A stretch of 64,000 nucleotides of DNA from a virus (taxonomy: Duplodnaviria > Caudoviricetes), in the IMG/VR virus record IMGVR_UViG_3300047557_002530, one strand, 5' to 3'. How positions within the stretch are numbered: the stretch's first letter is position 1; every line of letters starts with the position of its first letter. The notes below the pieces were generated by a model. That model had not been told where the DNA came from, ran no database searches, and worked only from the letters and a program-made list of their open reading frames with translations. Shown here piece by piece: positions 2,158-56,057 of this stretch. The translations under genes were made by a program, and so were the position numbers.

Positions 2158-3237
2158 ATGACTGCTACAATTTCACGTCAACAACAATCGAATACTTGGG
2201 AACAATTCTGCAACTGGGTTACTAGCACTGATAACCGTCTCTATGTAGGTTGGTTCGGAGTCCTGATGATTCCAACATTGCTCGCCGCAACAATCTGCTT
2301 CATCATCGCATTTGTCGGTGCTCCCCCTGTAGACATTGATGGAATCCGTGAACCAGTCGCTGGTTCTCTAATGTATGGAAACAACATCATCTCTGGTGCT
2401 GTTATTCCTTCGTCCAACGCGATTGGACTGCACTTCTACCCCATCTGGGAAGCTGCTTCACTTGATGAGTGGCTTTACAACGGCGGACCTTTCCAACTGG
2501 TAGTGTTCCACTTCCTCATCGGCATCTATGCTTATATGGGTCGTGAATGGGAACTCTCATACCGCCTAGGTATGCGTCCTTGGATCTGTGTTGCTTACTC
2601 TGCACCTGTTGCTGCTGCCAGCGCAGTGTTCCTAGTCTATCCTTTCGGTCAAGGTTCTTTCTCTGATGCAATGCCTCTGGGTATCTCTGGTACCTTCAAC
2701 TACATGCTTGTTTTCCAGGCAGAACATAACATCCTGATGCACCCCTTCCACATGCTTGGAGTTGCTGGTGTCTTCGGTGGTTCACTGTTCTCTGCAATGC
2801 ACGGTTCTCTAGTTACTTCCTCACTGGTTCGTGAAACCACCGAGCAAGAGTCGCAGAACTATGGTTACAAGTTCGGTCAAGAAGAAGAGACTTATAACAT
2901 CGTTGCAGCACACGGTTATTTCGGTCGCCTGATCTTCCAATATGCTTCCTTCAATAACTCTCGTTCGCTACACTTCTTCCTTGCTGCTTGGCCTGTTGTC
3001 GGTATCTGGTTCACTGCTCTTGGTGTTAGCACCATGGCCTTTAACTTAAATGGCTTTAATTTCAACCAGTCTCTGCTTGATAGTCAGGGTCGTGTAGTTA
3101 ACACCTGGGCTGATGTTCTTAACCGTGCTGGACTGGGAATGGAAGTGATGCACGAGAGAAATGCACATAACTTTCCTTTGGACCTGGCTGCTGCCGAAGC
3201 AACTCCTGTTGCTCTAACTGCACCTTCTATCGGTTGA
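2158..3237 (+). CDS. psbA: Photosystem II D1 protein
   Basis: Full-length D1 ([10 protein letters not shown]...HNFPLDLA plus C-terminal extension); no intron; real start at 2158, not 2095. Confidence 0.99.
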
Positions 3238-3260
3238 GTTTCGTAAAAACTGAATAATCT

Positions 3261-3301
3261 AAAAGGAGGGACTTGCAAAAGTCCCTTTTTTGCTATATAA
3301 T
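3261..3301 (+). terminator. Intrinsic terminator that also carries a sigma70 promoter for the downstream endonuclease
   Basis: Stem gggactt/aagtccc plus T run; TTGCAA (3273-3278)-17 nt-TATAAT (3296-3301). Confidence 0.65.
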
Positions 3302-3331
3302 AATTGAAGTTAAGAAATCAAAGATTGAATT

Positions 3332-3760
3332 ATGAAAACTTGCAACATTTGTGGAGAAACGAAATCACTTGATGAGTATTATATCAATAATTTTGGATAC
3401 CCTCACGGTAAATGTAAAAAGTGCTATGTTAAAAAACAGCAAGAAAAATATGACCCAATGAAAAAAAGAAACGAAAACTTAAAAAGATGTTATGGAATAA
3501 CACTCCAAGAATATAATGAAATGTTAGATAATCAAAATGGTAAATGTGCCACTTGTGGAACTACTGAACCAGGAGGTAGAAAATCTGGTAGGGGCGGTGG
3601 TGCTGATGTATTTGTAGTAGATCACTGCCACGATACTGGTAAAGTTAGAGGTCTTCTTTGTCATAGTTGTAATAGGGCTATGGGACTATTAGGAGATAAT
3701 GTAAGCGTTATTGAAAGTATGATTAAATACCTTGAGCAGCACGAAATTAATGTCTCATAA
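3332..3760 (+). CDS. Free-standing homing endonuclease, endonuclease VII/HNH family (F-CphI-like)
   Basis: N-terminal CxxC...CxxC; VVDHCHDTGKVRGLLCHSCNRAMG endo VII motif; lies just downstream of psbA, as F-CphI does. Confidence 0.85.
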   Translation: MKTCNICGETKSLDEYYINNFGYPHGKCKKCYVKKQQEKYDPMKKRNENLKRCYGITLQEYNEMLDNQNGKCATCGTTEPGGRKSGRGGGADVFVVDHCHDTGKVRGLLCHSCNRAMGLLGDNVSVIESMIKYLEQHEINVS

Positions 3761-3872
3761 TACTCAACACGAACCTATGCCTAACTGGGTAATCTGGGTA
3801 GGCGTAGGTATGATGGTATTTACGGTTCTTGTTTTTGTCTTATTCACTCTTGGGCAAATTTACTGGGGATAA
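3750..3872 (+). CDS. Small membrane peptide (40 aa)
   Basis: MSHNTQHEPMPNWVIWVGVGMMVFTVLVFVLFTLGQIYWG; one transmembrane segment. Confidence 0.5.
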   Translation: MSHNTQHEPMPNWVIWVGVGMMVFTVLVFVLFTLGQIYWG

Positions 3873-3940
3873 GTGCTAATACTCATTGACTCTTATTATG
3901 AAGTATTGTAAACTAAATATGAGAAATCACATAGGAGGCT

Positions 3941-4087
3941 ATGACTTCTTCAACACTTTCACAACCAATTCAACAAAGGGGGTGGTTTGATGTCCTGGAT
4001 GACTGGCTTAAACGAGATCGCTTTGTATTTGTGGGTTGGTCTGGACTATTACTTTTTCCCACTGCTTATTTGGCCCTTGACTGGTAG
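3941..4087 (+). pseudogene. psbD: Truncated 5' end of psbD (46 homologous codons, then a stop)
   Basis: [48 protein letters not shown]; GGAGG RBS; homology ends at 4078. Confidence 0.92.
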
Positions 4088-47971: not shown

Positions 47972-50380
47972 ATGAGTATTCCAGGTAGCCTTACTCCCCT
48001 CTTTAATTCTGGTGGTGGAGCGGGGTATCAGGTGTCCAGATCAATTCGGCTGAACGCATCGGACTCGGCCTATCTCAGCCGCACCCCCGCATCAGCCGGC
48101 AACCGCAAGACGTGGACCTGGGCGGGGTGGGTGAAGCGGAGCAAGTTCAGCCAAAATATGCCGATTTTTGGAACCGATTACAATGGGGCCAGTTACTTCA
48201 CCTTGTATTTTACAGGTGGAAATAATTTTGCTATTGAAAATTATAACGCAAGCTATCAACTTCGAGTTCAAACGACACAATTATTTCGAGATCCATCAGC
48301 ATGGTTTCATCTGGTTGTCACTCTTGACACAACTCAAGGCACAGCTTCCGACAGGTGCAAAATTTACGTCAATGGATCTCAGGTAACGGCATTAGATTTT
48401 AATACCTACCCGTCTCAAAACGCTGATTTGCTTATAAACAACAATCAGTATCACGAAATCAGCACGACAAACAGCACTTACACGTTTGGCGGCTACCTAG
48501 CCGACATCCACTTCATCGACGGCCAAGCGCTAACCCCCACCAGCTTCGGCGAGTTCTCCGCCACCACCGGCGTGTGGATGCCCAAGGCGTACGCCGGCAG
48601 TTATGGCACCAACGGGTTCAAACTCAACTTCTCCGATAACAGCACCGCCGCCGCATTAGGAACGGACACTAGCGGGAATGGGAACACGTGGAGTGTCAAC
48701 AACCTATCCGTCACCGCTGGTGCAGGCAACGACAGCCTCGTAGACGTTCCCGTCAACGGCAGCGAGGTTGATACCGGAGCGGGCGGGCAGGTGAGGGGAA
48801 ATTACTGCACGTTGAATCCACTGGATAAGGGAAGCAACGTCACGCTGACCAACGGCAATCTGGACGTTTCTACAAACTCAACCTGGAACTCAGTTAGAGC
48901 GACTTTCGGTATCACATCAGGCAAGTGGTACTGGGAATACACCATGACTGCCGCCGGATACACAATGGTCGGCATAGGCTCTCGTGTCATTGATCTTGCT
49001 GGATACATTGGCCAGAGTTCTGCCGGTTACGCCTACTATTCACTGAACGGCAATAAATGGAATAGCGGTTCAGCAGCAAGCTACGGCAGTTCCTTCACCA
49101 CTAACGACGTGGTTGGTGTCGCTTTTGATGCAGATGCTGGCAAGATCTGGTTTTCTAAAAACGGCACTTGGCAGGCCAGTGGTGATCCCGCTGCAGGCAC
49201 AAATGCTGCGTACACCAGCATCCCAAGCAGCACTTACTTCCCCACCATTTCGCAAGACAACTCTCTACCTGCTTCCACTGGCGGAACACTGAACGCAGGC
49301 GCTCGTAGTTTCGCCTACACCGCCCCCAGCGGCTTCAAGGCGCTCTGCACGGCAAACCTGCCCGCACCCACCATCGTGAAGCCGAGCACGGTGATGGATG
49401 TGAAGCTGTATACGGGCAATGGCAGCACGCAGACTATTTCGGGGTTGGGGTTTAGTCCTGATTTGGTGTGGATGAAGGTCCGCAGCATTGGCTATAACCA
49501 CACGCTGATTGACTCAGTTCGTGGAGCGACTAAGACCCTTAGCTCCAGTATGACCGTGCAGGAATACACCGAACCGACAGGTCCGACAGCTTTCACCTCA
49601 GATGGCTGGTCGATGTCGGGGGATGTAACTTACGTCGGCTCTGTTAATGCCAACGGGCAAACATATGCGGGCTGGTGCTGGGACGCCGGCAGCTCCACCG
49701 TCACGAACACACAAGGCTCCATCACTAGTCAGGTGAGGGCTAATGCCAGTGCGGGGTTCTCGATTGTTACTTACAGCGGCAACAGCACTGCAGGTGCAAC
49801 CGTGGGACATGGGTTAGGTGTTGCACCAGCATTTGTTATTGCCAAAAGCCGCAATAATTCAAGTGAATGGATGTGTTATCACCAATCACTCGGAAATGCG
49901 CAGTCAATCATTCTCAATACAACTGCAGCAGCGGGAGGCTCTTCTGGTTGGAATAGCACCAGCCCCTCATCGACAGTTATCACACTCGGCGTTTCGGGTG
50001 CTGGTAATTTCTCCGGCTACACGCATGTGATATACGCCTTCGCCCCAGTAGCCGGGTACTCTAGTTTTGGTTCATATGTAGGGAATGGATCGTCAGATGG
50101 GGTTTTTGTGTATACCGGCTTTAGGCCAGCAGTGGTTATTATAAAGTCAACAGGCGTAGAAAATTGGTTTATTTTTGATAACGATAGATTAGGATACAAT
50201 CCTGATCACAGCTATTTGCTTCCAAACAGCAGTGCAGCAGAAACCTCCTTTTCTGGTTTCGACTTGTTATCAAACGGTTTCAAATGGCGCACAAATTCTG
50301 TAGCATTAAATAACAATGGAACTTCTTACGTCTACGCCGCCTTCGCAGAATCGCCCTTCGCCTACAGCCGCGCTAGGTAA
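47972..50380 (+). CDS. Tail fibre with ConA/LamG-like and SPRY-like lectin domains; high-GC mosaic
   Basis: RKTWTWAGWVKR; WFHLVV; GYLADIHFIDG; GKWYWE; GVAFDADAGKIWF; FKALCTANL. Confidence 0.8.
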   Translation: MSIPGSLTPLFNSGGGAGYQVSRSIRLNASDSAYLSRTPASAGNRKTWTWAGWVKRSKFSQNMPIFGTDYNGASYFTLYFTGGNNFAIENYNASYQLRVQTTQLFRDPSAWFHLVVTLDTTQGTASDRCKIYVNGSQVTALDFNTYPSQNADLLINNNQYHEISTTNSTYTFGGYLADIHFIDGQALTPTSFGEFSATTGVWMPKAYAGSYGTNGFKLNFSDNSTAAALGTDTSGNGNTWSVNNLSVTAGAGNDSLVDVPVNGSEVDTGAGGQVRGNYCTLNPLDKGSNVTLTNGNLDVSTNSTWNSVRATFGITSGKWYWEYTMTAAGYTMVGIGSRVIDLAGYIGQSSAGYAYYSLNGNKWNSGSAASYGSSFTTNDVVGVAFDADAGKIWFSKNGTWQASGDPAAGTNAAYTSIPSSTYFPTISQDNSLPASTGGTLNAGARSFAYTAPSGFKALCTANLPAPTIVKPSTVMDVKLYTGNGSTQTISGLGFSPDLVWMKVRSIGYNHTLIDSVRGATKTLSSSMTVQEYTEPTGPTAFTSDGWSMSGDVTYVGSVNANGQTYAGWCWDAGSSTVTNTQGSITSQVRANASAGFSIVTYSGNSTAGATVGHGLGVAPAFVIAKSRNNSSEWMCYHQSLGNAQSIILNTTAAAGGSSGWNSTSPSSTVITLGVSGAGNFSGYTHVIYAFAPVAGYSSFGSYVGNGSSDGVFVYTGFRPAVVIIKSTGVENWFIFDNDRLGYNPDHSYLLPNSSAAETSFSGFDLLSNGFKWRTNSVALNNNGTSYVYAAFAESPFAYSRAR

Positions 50381-50428
50381 ATAATAACCACTGTGTTCAT
50401 AATAAATATTTAAAAAGTACTATCTAAA

Positions 50429-50932
50429 ATGTTTATATTAAACGAAAAACCATTAGCATTAGATGTCCCATTTACTCATAATGGCGTACAGTATCCTGCA
50501 AATTGGTTAAGATTAACTACTTTTGAAGAAAAACAAGCAATTGGAATTACAGAAGAACCCGATCCTATTATCCACGATCAAAGGTATTATTGGGACATTG
50601 GAATTCCAAAACAACTTGAAGATGAAACAGTTACTACTGAAGATGGGAGAACTTATATTCAAACAGGACTAAAAACTCAACATATTACACAAACCAAAGA
50701 AACTGCAAATACACTTCTACAACCAACTGATTGGTATATTATAAGAAGTTTTGAAAGAGGTATTGATGTCCCTGTAGGTGTTGCAACTTATCGTGCTGCT
50801 GTCATTTCAGTTGCAGAAGAAAGAGAAGAATTAATTTCTGCAGTAACCACTGTAGAAGAACTTAAAGCACTTTATGAATCTTCTGCAAACGGTAGTGCAA
50901 TGCCAAGTTGGCCTTCTCTTGAAAATATTTAA
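50429..50932 (+). CDS. Tail-fibre assembly/chaperone-like protein
   Basis: YPANWLRL; LLQPTDWYIIR..E; YRAAV; follows a fibre gene. Confidence 0.65.
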   Translation: MFILNEKPLALDVPFTHNGVQYPANWLRLTTFEEKQAIGITEEPDPIIHDQRYYWDIGIPKQLEDETVTTEDGRTYIQTGLKTQHITQTKETANTLLQPTDWYIIRSFERGIDVPVGVATYRAAVISVAEEREELISAVTTVEELKALYESSANGSAMPSWPSLENI

Positions 50933-50993
50933 AAGAAATCCTAGCAGCATAAAACTAATAAATAGTAAAAAGTAGGGGGAGAGTGAACCCGAG

Positions 50994-53042
50994 ATGGCTG
51001 CAGAAATCAGAGTAGATACTATCAAATCTAGGAGTGGTATTAATACTATTTCCTTAAACAATAATTCATTTTCTGTTCTTACTAATGTTGGTATTGGTAC
51101 TACAGTTGCAACATCTAAATTAGAAATCGTAGGTTCAGTTAATATATCTGGTATTACAACTATTGGTACAGTATTAATTACTTCAGGTATTGTAACTGCA
51201 ACTTCACCATCAGGAATTGTTACTTACTATGGTGACGGTTCTGAGTTGCTTGGTGTAATTGGTGGTATTGGTATTCAATCAGCAGGAACTATCATAGGAA
51301 CCGGAGTAACCACACTTAACTTTATTGGTGCTGCAAATACAATCAGTGTATCGGGTTCCACGGCAACAATAAGTATTACTGGAAATTCCGCACCAGTCAC
51401 AAAGATTTCAACAGCAACATTTAATCCAGTTGGTTTTGCAACAGCAACAATCAATATCAATAATTCTACATCAGTTGGTTATGCAATCACTGGACTTTCA
51501 CCATCCCAAGTAGTGACATTTGATATTAATAGTACTGGTGGAACAGCAACATCTCCTGCAGTTCAGTGTGGAGCAGCGGGAACAGTATCAGGAACAATTT
51601 CATTTACTGCCGCTGGTACTGCATATACATCAGGTTCTCCAGCAACTCAAATCATAAGATTCATTTCTGGTGGCGACATTGTAACCAAGAACTGGAATAT
51701 TGTAATTAATCCAATTGAAGCAACAACGGCACTTGGTTGGGATGCATCTGCTGACACTTATGCTTACTATACCTACGGAACTTCAACACAAATATTAGGT
51801 ATTGGTGTAACAACAAGAGATTATAAGAATCTTGATGTTCAATCCAGAATGAGACGCTGCGTGATTAATAACTCTGGTGTTGTTCAATATTACTTAGATG
51901 CTGATGATAGTACTAAAAAAGCAGGTGATTGGTTAAGAATTGTAGAAAGAAATGGACTTAATGTAGAATACACTGGAGTTCATACAGAAGAATCACATCC
52001 AGGTTTAAGAATGGGTGTTTCAAATTGGAGTGCTGGTACTTATACGCAAGGTCAAAGAGTCATTCATAATGGTTCTCTATGGGAATGTATTGTCGCATCT
52101 ACCACAGCAACACCAGCAGCAGGAAGTGTATCATCAAATCTTTCTGGTACTGATGGTCAGGTAATGGTAGAAATACCGACATTTAGTGTAAGACATACAA
52201 AATCGGGAAATGTGCATACCTTCCAAGTTGGTTTAGGAACTACAGTTTCTGGTTCTGGATATGAAGTTCATCCAGCATTTGTAAAGAGTGATAATTCTTA
52301 TCGTACTCATATTTACTTGGGCGCATATCAAGGAACTGGAGGAACCACAAGTGGAGCACTGTCTTCAGTTTCTGGTGTCAGTAATGTAGTCAATGCAACT
52401 CGTGCAACCTTTAGAACTGCAGCATCAGGAAGAGGAACTGGATGGCATCAATTGAGTTATTATGAGATGGCAGCTGCGTATCTGCTGATGGTAACAGAGT
52501 TTGATAGTGTGAATATTCAAAGAAGACTTGGAAACGGCGCTCAAGAAGGTTCTGTTTATGTCGTGAATACTGGACTTTCTAATTCCTCTGGTAATAAGTC
52601 ACAGAACAATTATACTGCTGGTGGGAGCGCTGCAAACTATATTACCTATCGTGGTCTTGAGAACATTTATGGTCGTGCGTGGCAGTGGGCAGATGGATTT
52701 AATGCAAACACAACTTCAGCATATCTAAACAAGAACTGGACAACTTGGTCAGATGATACTTCTACCAATTATACATTAGTTGGAACTACTGCATCAGGAG
52801 GTGGTTCTTATCAAACTGATTTCTTAAGTATCAATAATGTTCTTCTACCATCCACTGCATCTGGTGGTAGTGCAACAACTTATATTGCCGATGGTTTATG
52901 GACTTCTACTGGTTGGCGGGTGGCCACTGTGAGCGGCGCTAATGTTGGTTCGCTTGTTGGTCCTTTCTGCTTGGATCTGGGTAATGGTTCTTCCCTTGCT
53001 AGTGCCAACGTCGGCGGTCGTCTTTCTTGGGCGCCTGTTTAA
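50994..53042 (+). CDS. Tail fibre/receptor-binding protein, DGR target (Mtd/CLec-like C-terminus)
   Basis: DGQVMVEIP; YRGLENIYGRAWQWADG; the last 45 codons contain the VR. Confidence 0.88.
   Translation: MAAEIRVDTIKSRSGINTISLNNNSFSVLTNVGIGTTVATSKLEIVGSVNISGITTIGTVLITSGIVTATSPSGIVTYYGDGSELLGVIGGIGIQSAGTIIGTGVTTLNFIGAANTISVSGSTATISITGNSAPVTKISTATFNPVGFATATININNSTSVGYAITGLSPSQVVTFDINSTGGTATSPAVQCGAAGTVSGTISFTAAGTAYTSGSPATQIIRFISGGDIVTKNWNIVINPIEATTALGWDASADTYAYYTYGTSTQILGIGVTTRDYKNLDVQSRMRRCVINNSGVVQYYLDADDSTKKAGDWLRIVERNGLNVEYTGVHTEESHPGLRMGVSNWSAGTYTQGQRVIHNGSLWECIVASTTATPAAGSVSSNLSGTDGQVMVEIPTFSVRHTKSGNVHTFQVGLGTTVSGSGYEVHPAFVKSDNSYRTHIYLGAYQGTGGTTSGALSSVSGVSNVVNATRATFRTAASGRGTGWHQLSYYEMAAAYLLMVTEFDSVNIQRRLGNGAQEGSVYVVNTGLSNSSGNKSQNNYTAGGSAANYITYRGLENIYGRAWQWADGFNANTTSAYLNKNWTTWSDDTSTNYTLVGTTASGGGSYQTDFLSINNVLLPSTASGGSATTYIADGLWTSTGWRVATVSGANVGSLVGPFCLDLGNGSSLASANVGGRLSWAPV
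52908..53036 (+). repeat. DGR variable repeat (VR, 129 nt)
   Basis: 17 substitutions relative to TR, all at TR adenines, plus one in-frame 3-nt deletion. Confidence 0.95.
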
Positions 53043-53163
53043 TATTACGGAATATTGTGGAAGCACACGGAGACTTGCGGATTTTTTGCTCTTCGTTTAT
53101 AATACATATATGAATTGAGGAAACTTCCATTGCAGTAACTTTTGAGTAGGTTTGGTCTATGTC

Positions 53164-53295
53164 ACTGGTTGGCGGGTGGCCAATGTGAGCGGCAACACTA
53201 ATAATGGTTCGCTTGATGGTCCTTTCTACTTGAATCTGAATAATGATTCTTCCAATGCTAATACCAACATCAGCAGTCGTCTTTCTTGGGCGCCT
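53164..53295 (+). repeat. DGR template repeat (TR, 132 nt)
   Basis: 10 AAY codons; 30 adenines, none at third codon positions. Confidence 0.95.
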
Positions 53296-53486
53296 TGGTT
53301 TGAGTCTCAGTTGAGTTTCAGTTTACTTCAGTGAGTTTCCAGTGCTCTTTCACTTCTCTTCGGTTATAGCAAATCTTTAATCGCATTTAGACAAACCTTA
53401 CCACTCGGTAAAAATACACAGCAACGACAATAAGGATTAGTAAGTCTTTATGAATTTGAAAATCCTGTCACGACAGAGAAAATGTT

Positions 53487-54533
53487 ATGAAACGAATTGG
53501 ATTTCTTTACGAAAAAATCTATTCATTTGAAAATCTTCTAACTGCATATGAAAATGCAAAAAGAAATAAAAAACACTATAAACAAGTTCAAGAGTTTGAA
53601 AAAGAAAATGTAGAACAAAAACTTTTAGAACTTCAACAAATACTTATTAACCAACAATATAAGAGTTCACAATATCGTACATTTAATATTATAGAAAGAG
53701 GTAAAGAAAGGACAATATATTCACTTCCTTTTTATCCGGACAGAATTGTTCATCACGCAATTGTTCAAGTACTTGCTCCTATTTGGATTAAGAGTTTCAT
53801 TAGAGACACTTATGCATCTATACCAAATAGAGGAATACACGACGCAGTAAAAAGAATACAAAAAATCAAACATAACTGGAAAAATCACTATGTTCTTAAG
53901 TGTGATATTTCCAAGTTTTACCCATCCGTAAATCATCAAGTATTAAAAAATATACTAAAATTAAAAATTAAAGATAAAAAACTAATAACACTATTAGAAG
54001 AAATTATAGACTCCGAAGAAGGTATACCTATTGGAAACTATCTTTCGCAATATTTTGGTAACATTATTCTTTCTCCACTAGATCATTATATCAAAGAAGT
54101 CCTAAAAGTCAAATACTACTATCGTTATTGTGACGATTTTGTTTTAATTCATTCAAACAAAAGACACTTACACTACCTTAAAAATAAAATAAATGAATAT
54201 GTAGCAACACTCAATCTTAAATTAAAATCAAATTGGCAAGTATATCCAATAGAATCAAGAGGACTTGATTTTGTTGGATATGTCTTTTATGTATCTCACA
54301 CAATCATAAGAAAAAATAATATTCAAAGATATAAAAAACGAATTAAATATAGAAAATATAATTTAATATCCAACATAATCATTCTAAATCATATCAAATG
54401 TTTCAAAGGTTGGAAAAAATATGCAAACACAAGAAATCTAAATAATACTATAGAAACTCCAAGATACTTCAATGTCCAATCATATTTTAGTCAATTACGG
54501 AGGAGACTGTCCAGAGATACAAAAGTATCGTGA
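53487..54533 (+). CDS. DGR reverse transcriptase
   Basis: GKERTI; PFYPDRIVHHA; KCDISKFYPSV; GIPIGNYLSQYFGN; YYRYCDD; LDFVGY. Confidence 0.96.
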   Translation: MKRIGFLYEKIYSFENLLTAYENAKRNKKHYKQVQEFEKENVEQKLLELQQILINQQYKSSQYRTFNIIERGKERTIYSLPFYPDRIVHHAIVQVLAPIWIKSFIRDTYASIPNRGIHDAVKRIQKIKHNWKNHYVLKCDISKFYPSVNHQVLKNILKLKIKDKKLITLLEEIIDSEEGIPIGNYLSQYFGNIILSPLDHYIKEVLKVKYYYRYCDDFVLIHSNKRHLHYLKNKINEYVATLNLKLKSNWQVYPIESRGLDFVGYVFYVSHTIIRKNNIQRYKKRIKYRKYNLISNIIILNHIKCFKGWKKYANTRNLNNTIETPRYFNVQSYFSQLRRRLSRDTKVS

Positions 54534-54876
54534 TGGTTGGTTAGTTCCTGTAAATATAACAGAAACAACTCGTGAAGATAGTTCTGTTTCTTATGATGCT
54601 TATCAGGTATTTGTACCAGTTCTCACAGAACATGAACTTGAAAAAGCATTTGGAGACCTTAAAGACTTATATCCAGAAGACTTTAAGAAAGCAGCATTTT
54701 ATCATATAAGACAAAAGAGAGACCAATTACTTGTAGAAACTGATTGGTTAATCACAAAAGCAAAAGAAACAGGAACTAATATTCCAGCAGCACTTAAAGA
54801 ATATCGTCAAGCATTAAGAGACCTTCCCGATACTTATGAGAGTGCTGATGATGTAGTGTTTCCAGTGAAACCATAA
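54472..54876 (+). CDS. Phage tail-fibre assembly chaperone-like protein
   Basis: IRQKRDQLLVETDW...EYRQALRDLP...FPVKP; overlaps the RT 3' end. Confidence 0.75.
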   Translation: MSNHILVNYGGDCPEIQKYRDGWLVPVNITETTREDSSVSYDAYQVFVPVLTEHELEKAFGDLKDLYPEDFKKAAFYHIRQKRDQLLVETDWLITKAKETGTNIPAALKEYRQALRDLPDTYESADDVVFPVKP

Positions 54877-54933
54877 GACACTCCAAAAACTGTCACATAA
54901 ACCTCCCAGAACACAACTAGGAGGTTTTATAAT
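54877..54933 (+). promoter_or_regulatory. Promoter/stem-loop cassette (copy 2)
   Basis: GACA-N10-TGTC dyad; aacctcc/ggaggtt stem; TATAAT at 54928. Confidence 0.65.
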
Positions 54934-54955
54934 ATCTGGAGACACACGAAAACCG

Positions 54956-55060
54956 ATGAGGTTCTCCAACCTGGACAGATTACTCTTTATAATTTCTTTT
55001 ATGACTTTTATGAATTGGTGTGTTAGGATCTGTAACGTAGCAATCAACGCAGTATTCTGA
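54956..55060 (+). CDS. Small hydrophobic peptide (34 aa)
   Basis: MRFSNLDRLLFIISFMTFMNWCVRICNVAINAVF; TGATG coupling. Confidence 0.45.
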   Translation: MRFSNLDRLLFIISFMTFMNWCVRICNVAINAVF

Positions 55061-55497
55061 TGCTTACATTATATACCAGTGGATACGCTTATAGCAAGCG
55101 TCGCTGTGAATCAATTGTAAACTGGTTCATTTCCAAACATCTTCCAAGACATCATCTTGAGATTGTTGTCAATCATCGCGGTATGTTGCGCGATGGTGTT
55201 TATGGTTGGGTTGGAGTGACTGATTGTGATTGGCGTCCAAGATCTTTTGAGATTGAACTACACAATCAGTTGAGTCCAGAACATTACGCCGTAGTCCTCC
55301 TACACGAACTCTGGCACGTAAATCAACACGTCAAGGGTGCTCTAAGGGATAAGTATGGAAGGAGGCACTGGAGGGGCATAGAGCACTCAGATACTGACTA
55401 TTCTGAGCAACCTTGGGAACTACAAGCATTTCAAATGGAAGCGGTTCTTTATGAAGAATTCCTAAACCACTTGACAGACACCCAACAATCCCTGTAG
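55060..55497 (+). CDS. Zincin-like metallopeptidase
   Basis: VLLHELWHVNQ (HExxH); QPWELQAF. Confidence 0.75.
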   Translation: MLTLYTSGYAYSKRRCESIVNWFISKHLPRHHLEIVVNHRGMLRDGVYGWVGVTDCDWRPRSFEIELHNQLSPEHYAVVLLHELWHVNQHVKGALRDKYGRRHWRGIEHSDTDYSEQPWELQAFQMEAVLYEEFLNHLTDTQQSL

Positions 55498-55548
55498 ACT
55501 ACCTTTGTTGGGTTTGATGACGATCATCTAAACACTTTCAAAAACACA

Positions 55549-55749
55549 ATGAAAACCAAGAAAAAACTTATCAACATTCAACCAAAGAGTTCAAAGGCTA
55601 AGAACAGATTTGTGAATCAAATGGATAAACTTCATGCAATGGAGGTAGAACAAGAGACTGAGACTCAACTCTTTGTTGTTTCTATTAATCGTAAGTATTG
55701 TTTTTGGATGAATAAAGAAAACGATCCTCATTGGGAGGTGATTAAGTGA
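55549..55749 (+). CDS. Hypothetical protein
   Basis: TTGACA...TAGACT promoter upstream. Confidence 0.65.
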   Translation: MKTKKKLINIQPKSSKAKNRFVNQMDKLHAMEVEQETETQLFVVSINRKYCFWMNKENDPHWEVIK

Positions 55750-56057
55750 TTGGATTGATTGCAGCACTTACTTGTGGAATTTCTACATACTATGGTGTCG
55801 GAGATGGATTTCATGGAAAAGTTACTGCAAATGGTGAGCGGTTTGACGCTTATCGTTGGACTGCAGCTCATCCTTATCTACCTATGGGTTCACGCATACG
55901 GGTAACGAATCAAGATAACGGTAAACAAGTTATCGTTCGCGTAAATGATCGTGGACCCTATTCTCATGCGGATCTAGATCTTTCTTATGCTGCTTTTGCT
56001 CACATTCAATCTGTAAAAAAAGGTAACGCTGTCGTTTGTTGGAGGGTTGTTGGATGA
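55746..56057 (+). CDS. RlpA-like (DPBB) lytic transglycosylase/expansin-like protein
   Basis: TANGERFD...TAAHPYLPMGS..RVTN..NGK.V.VRVNDRGP. Confidence 0.85.
   Translation: MIGLIAALTCGISTYYGVGDGFHGKVTANGERFDAYRWTAAHPYLPMGSRIRVTNQDNGKQVIVRVNDRGPYSHADLDLSYAAFAHIQSVKKGNAVVCWRVVG

Follow-up and report, generated by a model that had tools for sequence, protein, structure and literature searches.

A stretch of viral DNA of 64,000 nt (hereafter, the window), which lies within the 92,435-bp IMG/VR record IMGVR_UViG_3300047557_002530 (estimated to be 43% complete), very probably carries a complete and recently active diversity-generating retroelement (DGR) that forms part of the fibre gene cluster in a T4-like cyanomyovirus from freshwater. 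The cassette comprises a gene for a 682-aa fibre-type target protein that ends in a variable repeat (VR), followed by a template repeat (TR), a structured spacer RNA and a gene for a 348-aa reverse transcriptase (RT) (Table 1).

Under the mechanism that we propose, a transcript containing the 132-nt TR and the downstream spacer RNA would be copied by the adjacent RT, which would misincorporate nucleotides opposite template adenines. The mutagenized cDNA would then replace the homologous 129-132-nt VR at the 3' end of the fibre gene, with priming and homing presumably guided by the adenine-free 3' homology between the two repeats. In this manner, as many as 20 codons for the ligand-binding face of a C-type lectin (CLec)/FGE-type domain could be recoded without the appearance of stop codons, with the potential to yield approximately 10^18 variants. 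The expected outcome is a population of virions with differing receptor-binding tips, and no Avd helper protein would be involved.

The repeat pair and its alleles in nature

In the gapped alignment of the VR and the TR, each of the 17 substitutions is located at a TR adenine (A>G in 12 cases, A>T in three and A>C in two), and no mismatches at other positions were detected in this repeat pair. Given the 28 adenine columns among the 129 aligned ones, the hypergeometric probability of such a distribution is 3e-14. The alignment also includes one 3-nt gap, the VR being one codon shorter than the TR. The coding design of the TR is equally regular: 17 of its adenines occupy the first codon position, 13 the second and none the third, ten codons are of the AAY type, and none of the 20 adenine-containing codons can be converted to a stop by adenine mutation, so that the theoretical repertoire amounts to about 10^17.8 proteins. 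A preliminary description of this DNA, made from the nucleotide sequence without database searches, had already reported the boundaries of the repeats, the confinement of the substitutions to TR adenines with the same counts of each type, and the avoidance of stops through AAY codons; all these observations were reproduced by the present alignment.

The two repeats share an identical adenine-free and GC-rich 3' segment, immediately after which they part (GTTTAA in the VR versus TGGTTT in the TR), in agreement with the same description. The VR ends in a G/S-R-L motif, 6 nt before the end of the target open reading frame (ORF). The shared segment is compatible with an initiation of mutagenic homing (IMH)/IMH* pair, and its directionality and role in homing might be the same as in the Bordetella model, by analogy with which they are proposed. 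A search of the record with an adenine-degenerate pattern revealed no further VRs beyond the known VR and TR, that is, the record contains one TR and one VR.

The codon that is missing from the VR falls within positions 52926-52950, and the length of the VR is polymorphic across samples. The full-length VR of one metagenomic run (X4, see below) reads GGC GGC GGC where the TR has AGC GGC AAC, and the window VR at the same place reads AGC GGC, directly followed by GCT. The simplest account appears to be that A-to-G changes turned AAC into GGC, thus producing a tandem GGC GGC, one unit of which would have been lost by slippage of either the RT or a DNA polymerase.

Evidence of variation in nature comes from the Logan contigs of four runs from other studies (X4, X5, X7 and X10), which were compared with the window over positions 50994-54876. 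Two X4 contigs that cover 52584-52779 and 53095-53302, the latter spanning the TR, show no differences from the window, and the X4 contig containing the VR carries 10 substitutions along with a 3-nt insertion that restores the missing codon. Similarly, the X5 contigs covering 52642-52852 and 53238-53410 are identical to the window, and 13 substitutions are present in the X5 contig that spans the VR, whose part within the TR is free of changes. The listed VR differences, 10 of 10 in X4 (P = 5e-8) and 9 of 9 in X5 (P = 3e-7), are without exception located at positions where the TR has an adenine, and several of these are reversions to A. Adenine-specific variation that affects the VR and spares the TR, as anticipated in the preliminary description, is thus observed at the level of contigs. 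Three VR alleles on a near-identical backbone with a single unchanged TR represent the signature expected of repeated mutagenic retrohoming. Because all 19 listed differences, which come from two other studies, are at TR adenines whereas the TR and the flanks remain unchanged, the element has evidently been active in nature, and the near-identity of the flanks implies a rate of change in the VR well above that of its surroundings. The contigs from X5, X7 and X10 also break at the VR borders, which is suggestive, but no more than suggestive, of heterogeneity within the samples.

Reverse transcriptase, spacer RNA and target fibre

The RT ORF is intact, as stated in the preliminary description, and its product matches the PHROG 1423 (4.6e-114) and Pfam RVT_1 (2.8e-17) profiles. 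The SQ and YCDD motifs noticed previously correspond to IGNYLSQ (residues 182-188) and YCDD (residues 214-217), respectively, and fit the I/LGxxxSQ motif and the YxDD catalytic box of DGR-type RTs. Among 80 IMG/VR loci that encode a homologous RT, 70 show the VR-TR-RT layout together with adenine-specific mismatches. The GC content of the RT gene (26.6%) is low compared to the window (37%) and to the C-terminal half of the target (41%), and the same holds for the RT genes of two related cassettes, L085 and L087 (27-28% in genomes of 35-37% GC; labels of this form denote contigs or loci with related cassettes). This composition suggests a foreign, low-GC origin of the gene, without subsequent amelioration.

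The region between the TR and the RT gene matches the Rfam family RT-17 (RF03020) with a score of 35.1 bits (E = 2.7e-5), below the gathering score of 40.4, and the family is found above the gathering score at the equivalent position in four relatives. In common with RT-17, this RNA is located directly upstream of an RT gene and contains two stems around a conserved UAGUA...GAA core; apart from the lower score, the window copy differs in its shortened inner stem. In an alignment of 16 cassettes, 84% of the cells pair, compared to 27-47% in slid controls, compensatory changes are seen in seven of the nine pairs, and the observed covariation was reached in none of 500 shuffles. A TATAAT box between the VR and the TR is a candidate -10 element and also occurs between the repeats in L085, L003 and the cyanophage S-EIVl. 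The consensus promoter scan of the sequence upstream of the TR detected no strong sigma-70 site, with the TATAAT box uncalled and a weak -35 region, and the box accordingly is best described as a promoter lead.

No match to Avd (PF05635) was detected in the whole 92-kb record at E-values up to 1, nor was there an NCBIfam hit in the nine ORFs neighbouring the cassette. The small proteins that flank the cassette are acidic (isoelectric points of 4.5-6.3), in contrast to Avd, which is a basic four-helix bundle. Avd was not found in the records of five relatives either, two of which are at least 95% complete. Furthermore, a conserved GC-rich hairpin 3' of the VR was not found; the only candidate is a 6-bp A/T stem (53041-53056; folding z-score of -0.17) that is absent in L085 and is not kept in other relatives. 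The upstream ORF for a 167-aa acidic protein (50429-50932), which resembles the 'CH1' accessory class of Wu et al. in size and isoelectric point, was considered as a potential part of the DGR and rejected given that its homologue is found beside no related cassette.

The target protein combines two modules of different provenance. When the N-terminal portion of approximately 275 aa was used as a tblastn query, 38 phage records were matched, of which 37 belong to Synechococcus or Prochlorococcus phages and one to a marine virus from a single cell; in these records, the hits are to genes with baseplate wedge, fibre or structural protein annotations. By contrast, residues 273-681 match the PHROG 5302 'tail protein' family (E = 3e-76), and the AlphaFold model of residues 273-682, built with 17 orthologues as input, has a predicted template modelling score of 0.85. 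The best Foldseek match of this tip model is the Thermus aquaticus variable protein TaqVP (5vf4; E = 3.6e-9), followed by Mtd and then by FGE and TvpA. In the all-against-all structural comparison with VIA-align, the Z-scores are 22.7 for TaqVP, 11.4 for TvpA and 9.1 for Mtd, with FGE-family enzymes and C-type lectins lower. A CLec tip on a fibre, for which the preliminary description had proposed structure prediction as a check, is therefore borne out by the predicted fold, in its CLec/FGE-type form. Since the N-terminus matches cyanophage structural proteins and the tip folds like DGR variable proteins, the target is a fusion, within one ORF, of a cyanomyovirus anchor and a DGR-type tip.

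The tip includes a CBM5/12-like carbohydrate-binding motif (52026-52106, target residues 345-371; 24.8 bits, just below the Pfam cutoff of 26.2). The motif sits in an insertion of about 70 aa that, within the target family, is confined to the cyanophage sub-lineage (the window and L002-L005). Outside the VR, the populations represented by X4 and X7 have an in-frame 6-nt insertion, ATTAAT, at position 51704 in the middle part of the target gene, and a C>T change at position 51505 is common to X4, X5 and X7; both are ordinary strain differences. The 3' end of the RT gene overlaps a gene for a tail-fibre assembly chaperone (Phage_tail_APC, 4.4e-13) that is 82% identical in L085 and the N-terminal part of which is kept in L002, L003, L005 and L006. 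Most likely, this chaperone folds the fibre and plays no role in retrohoming.

Phage backbone, relatives and alternative explanations

The record encodes psbA, psbD, gp32, a gp48-type baseplate tail-tube cap and a gp5-type hub, along with a long cluster of fibre genes. The gp32 protein shares 75% identity with its counterpart in Synechococcus phage S-SM2. By its gene content, the backbone is that of a T4-like cyanomyovirus (Kyanoviridae-type), in line with the preliminary description, which had taken the DNA to be that of a T4-like cyanophage, a myovirus with photosynthesis genes. No Phage_integrase domain is present in the 92-kb record, and a lytic lifestyle would be expected from the family. 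A search of the record, which is a fragment, with the Pfam Gp23 capsid profile gave no match, but there was none in the controls either. The runs that contain the window DNA are freshwater, lake and drinking-water metagenomes, and hence the phage is a freshwater rather than a marine cyanomyovirus.

Several genes around the cassette deserve mention. The neighbouring gene for an 802-aa fibre protein (47972-50380; SPRY and DUF7483 domains) reaches 53-57% GC over positions 48500-50000, compared to 37% in the genome. Two genes downstream of the cassette, an ORF for a 103-aa protein (55746-56057) matches the NCBIfam model of the RlpA-family lytic transglycosylase/DPBB domain (TIGR00413; 99 bits versus the cutoff of 82). 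Two independent Logan assemblies, L083 and L084, stop exactly at position 55877 inside this ORF, a sign that a repeat or differences among strains may have interrupted assembly here.

In a large protein collection, RTs closer to that of the window show 69-92% identity to it. The RT of L085 is 82% identical to the window RT, and the cassette as a whole shares about 83% nucleotide identity; L085 has its own VR/TR pair in which 17 of the 18 mismatches are at adenines. This cassette adjoins a helicase gene, nearly all matches of which are in cyanomyoviruses, with the freshwater S-SRM01 being the best match, and the N-terminal module of its target is another one of cyanomyovirus type; judging from these genes, L085 is a second cyanomyovirus context for the cassette. 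No match to the other L085 genes was found in the 92-kb record. In L085, the DGR target is immediately preceded by a gene (2870-3988) of the IS605 family OrfB/TnpB (Cas12f-like). The RT of L087, a cyanophage-type contig, is 69% identical, and all 19 mismatches in its own repeat pair are at adenines. In the RT tree, eight RTs including those of the window, L085 and L087 form a clade (support 100/99) that is sister to the group containing L002-L005 (joint support 100/100), with the RTs of crAss-like phages outside. The L002-L005 targets are 52-67% identical to the window target and are found on other backbones, either beside a head-tail adaptor or with fibre and endolysin genes.

Besides L085 and L087, a decayed DGR is present in Synechococcus phage S-EIVl (KJ410740.1, part of which is L082), a polar freshwater isolate. 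Its target tip is 52% identical to that of the window over about 400 aa, its VR and TR differ mostly at adenines, and the conserved spacer motif is kept; cassettes of its type (L002-L005) are the sister group in the RT tree. The S-EIVl element differs in that the RT is reduced to a stump, with no RT domain detectable anywhere in the 79-kb genome, in the three mismatches outside adenines, and in its backbone, which is not T4-like. Another locus, P0052, on a 79-kb contig, was considered as a possible intact S-EIVl-like phage, but the genes around it (primase-polymerase, dCTP deaminase) did not bear this out.

Table 1. Features of the DGR cassette in the window and of the decayed cassette in S-EIVl
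Feature	Coordinates	Strand	Description and evidence
DGR target gene, 682-aa fibre-type protein	50994..53042	+	ORF; PHROG 5302; lies in fibre/baseplate cluster
N-terminal anchor module, residues 1-272	50994..51809	+	tblastn to cyanophage structural genes
C-terminal CLec/FGE-type variable-protein domain, residues 273-682	51810..53039	+	AlphaFold, Foldseek, structural alignment
VR	52908..53036	+	129 nt, 43 codons up to the last but one of the target, in frame at 3' end of target ORF
Adenine-free GC-rich shared 3' segment	VR 53017..53036, TR 53276-53295	+	20 nt identical; candidate IMH-type homing/priming homology
TATAAT box	53098..53103	+	Between VR and TR; putative -10 element for TR-spacer-RT transcript
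TR	53164..53295	+	132 nt, 30 adenines
Structured spacer RNA (Rfam RT-17-like)	53394..53480	+	Between TR and RT; Rfam score and covariation
Spacer RNA stems	53399-53402/53407-53410, 53434-53437/53462-53465, pair 53443/53457	+	Covariation alignment
DGR-type RT, 348 aa	53487..54533	+	Intact ORF; isoelectric point 9.9; 26.6% GC; Pfam RVT_1, PHROG 1423
Tail-fibre assembly chaperone gene	54472..54876	+	Overlaps RT 3' end; Pfam Phage_tail_APC
Decayed DGR, S-EIVl	L082 4500-6610 = KJ410740.1 19498-21608		Unannotated cassette
S-EIVl VR	L082 6083-6211
S-EIVl TR	L082 6275-6403		27 of 30 VR/TR mismatches at adenines, 3 elsewhere
S-EIVl RT stump	L082 6521-6610		29-codon ORF annotated as hypothetical

Alternative explanations concern, on the one hand, the identity and placement of the cassette. 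Weak hidden Markov model matches of the RT to the group II intron RT, Drt3a, retron and UG models could be taken to mean that this protein is a member of a different class of prokaryotic RTs (group II intron, retron or Drt/UG defence) with a role in mobility or (counter-)defence, the repeat pair being incidental. We give this possibility almost no credence: all these matches are far under the curated cutoffs (127.6 versus 300, 72.8 versus 200 and 57 versus 235), PADLOC reports generic RT matches only, neither a maturase nor an endonuclease domain is present, the region lacks RNA families of the intron or msr/msd kind, and the homologues of this RT are nearly always accompanied by VR/TR pairs. 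An assembly chimera, in which the DGR cassette of another phage was mis-joined to a cyanomyovirus contig, is highly improbable as well. It is true that the record is a metagenomic contig, that the RT differs in GC content from the window, and that the nearest cassettes outside the clade reside in non-T4 backbones. However, a single unbroken ORF runs from the cyanomyovirus-type N-terminus across the junction into the DGR-type tip; the two assemblies L083 and L084 reproduce positions 49723-55877 and 51441-55877 without a single difference; contigs from other studies tile the cassette region; and an identical RT is recorded on a 210,923-bp contig. In addition, the L085 cassette is joined to a helicase gene of cyanomyovirus type and to another cyanomyovirus fibre N-terminus. 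The low GC content of the RT is a trait of the whole clade, shared with L085 and L087, and accordingly indicates foreign ancestry of the gene rather than mis-assembly. The assemblies speak against the joining with another replicon that the preliminary description had named as fatal to its interpretation.

On the other hand, a genuine DGR could be a fossil. Its activity would then date back to an ancestor, and the VR differences would be ancient alleles that selection or drift has preserved, without retrohoming at present. The VRs of L083 and L084 are identical to that of the window, and a clearly decayed copy does exist in S-EIVl. Nevertheless, we consider a fossil unlikely, given that the RT ORF is intact and retains the catalytic motifs, that differences at 9-10 or more adenine positions separate the three VR alleles within kilobases of identical or nearly identical flanks and TR, and that the window repeats have no mismatches outside adenines, compared to three of 30 in the decayed S-EIVl copy. 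It is still harder to attribute the VR differences to strong positive selection acting on ordinary point mutations, or to recombination between strains, rather than to reverse transcription. The receptor-binding tips of phage fibres are often hypervariable without a DGR, but all 17, 10 and 9 differences sit where the nearby TR has an adenine, with three types of substitutions and reversions to A, a pattern that is predicted by neither ordinary mutation nor recombination. Several points detract from our preferred interpretation, a complete and recently active DGR. The case, also with respect to a fossil, is built on DNA sequence. The X4 and X5 alleles come from low-depth Logan contigs (2.8 and 4.8, respectively) rather than from reads, and 4 of the 13 X5 differences are too close to the contig end to be listed. 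The L083 and L084 assemblies, which are 100% identical to the window including the VR, may derive from the source samples and therefore serve as evidence of contiguity only. The minimum free energy of the spacer is no better than that of shuffled sequence, and for this reason the claim of structure relies on Rfam and covariation. Receptor binding by the tip and effects on host range are putative. Finally, with a record that is about 43% complete, a distant avd gene, a second target or an integrase could lie outside it.

Class of the element, novelty and significance

With its target-VR-TR-RT order on one strand and no accessory gene, the element is a genuine DGR of the Avd-less type, which has been described for lineage 3 of Wu et al. 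and for crAss-like phages and corresponds to Architecture A, defined as TR-RT without an accessory gene, which accounts for 29% of DGRs; one whole RT lineage lacks avd (Wu et al., 2018; PMC5758913). The preliminary description had equated the cassette with the architecture of Bordetella phage BPP-1 (mtd-avd-TR-brt, Architecture B), and this comparison holds in part only. The adenine-specific transfer from TR to VR, the position of the VR at the 3' end of the gene for a receptor-binding protein with the C-type lectin fold (Mtd), the location of the TR upstream of the RT with a spacer RNA in between, and the GC-rich adenine-free 3' homology are common to both. However, the window has neither Avd nor the conserved GC-rich hairpin 3' of the VR, its spacer RNA is of another Rfam family, RT-17, and BPP-1 is a temperate podovirus whereas the window phage is a lytic-type T4-like myovirus.

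The window DGR is nearer to those of crAss-like phages than to the Bordetella prototype. The DGR of the crAss-like phage LMMB has been described as target gene-VR(IMH)-TR(IMH*)-RT without avd (PMC7290462), and the two systems are alike in gene order, lack of avd, a target of the tail-fibre type, a VR ending in G/S-R-L and, presumably, a non-temperate phage as the carrier. The LMMB RT is among the best GenBank phage matches, and its 43% identity to the window RT suggests kinship with lineage 3, in which it was placed by its authors. At the same time, the RTs of crAss-like phages are 43-50% identical to the window RT and fall outside the cyanophage clade in the RT tree. Further differences are the freshwater T4-like cyanomyovirus that carries the window element, the cyanomyovirus anchor and the ~70-aa insertion in the target, and the chaperone gene overlapping the RT gene. 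TaqVP (PDB 5VF4), the best structural match to the tip (262 residues aligned, root-mean-square deviation of 3.2 A), is the target of a cellular DGR, shows 16-20% sequence identity and does not belong to a virion, in contrast to the cyanophage protein with its additional fibre anchor.

The mechanism itself is not new but rather represents a known Avd-less class that is newly placed in freshwater T4-like cyanomyoviruses. Literature searches on DGRs in cyanophages, with T4-like phages, Kyanoviridae, cyanomyoviruses and S-EIV1 included, brought up no account of such an element in a cyanomyovirus or in S-EIV1, and among the 50,697 GenBank phage records, no cyanophage is present among the best 30 of the 154 RT matches. 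The preliminary description had stressed both the cyanomyovirus carrier and the contrast with temperate phages, in which most described phage DGRs were said to reside. The former part stands, whereas the latter is weakened in that DGRs of lytic phages have been reported since 2020-2021 (PMC7981956; PMC7290462); the novelty accordingly lies in the cyanomyovirus host, not in the lytic lifestyle. Given that the metagenomic catalogue of Roux et al. (2021) exceeds 30,000 DGRs and includes three lineages of phages in which attachment proteins are diversified, the window element may sit unremarked inside such catalogues; in the supplements of that study, cyanophage-type terms occur in the benchmark tables only.

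The CLec tip, the TR, the spacer RNA, the RT and the fibre chaperone together might constitute a portable host-range module that was moved between unrelated freshwater cyanophage lineages, the S-EIVl type and the T4-like cyanomyoviruses, by fusion to different anchors. Such a module would give lytic cyanomyoviruses programmed hypervariation of the tip, including occasional changes in loop length, and would amount to a previously unrecognized route to host-range change in an ecologically dominant group of phages. We put this scenario forward tentatively, as one that is plausible but falls slightly short of being probable.

Few phages of picocyanobacteria are as abundant or as well studied as the T4-like cyanomyoviruses, the host range of which is usually ascribed to point mutation and mosaicism of fibre genes. 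If a DGR is at work in these phages, this would mean that some lytic cyanomyoviruses are able to make approximately 10^18 receptor-binding variants from one template, which would alter the modelling of host-range breadth, resistance arms races and "kill-the-winner" dynamics in lakes. The material for such study includes the cassette on different cyanomyovirus anchors (the window, L085 and L087) and the decayed copy in the culturable S-EIVl. Moreover, the compact Avd-less RT along with a defined covarying RNA would be a convenient system for the study of Avd-independent mutagenic retrohoming.

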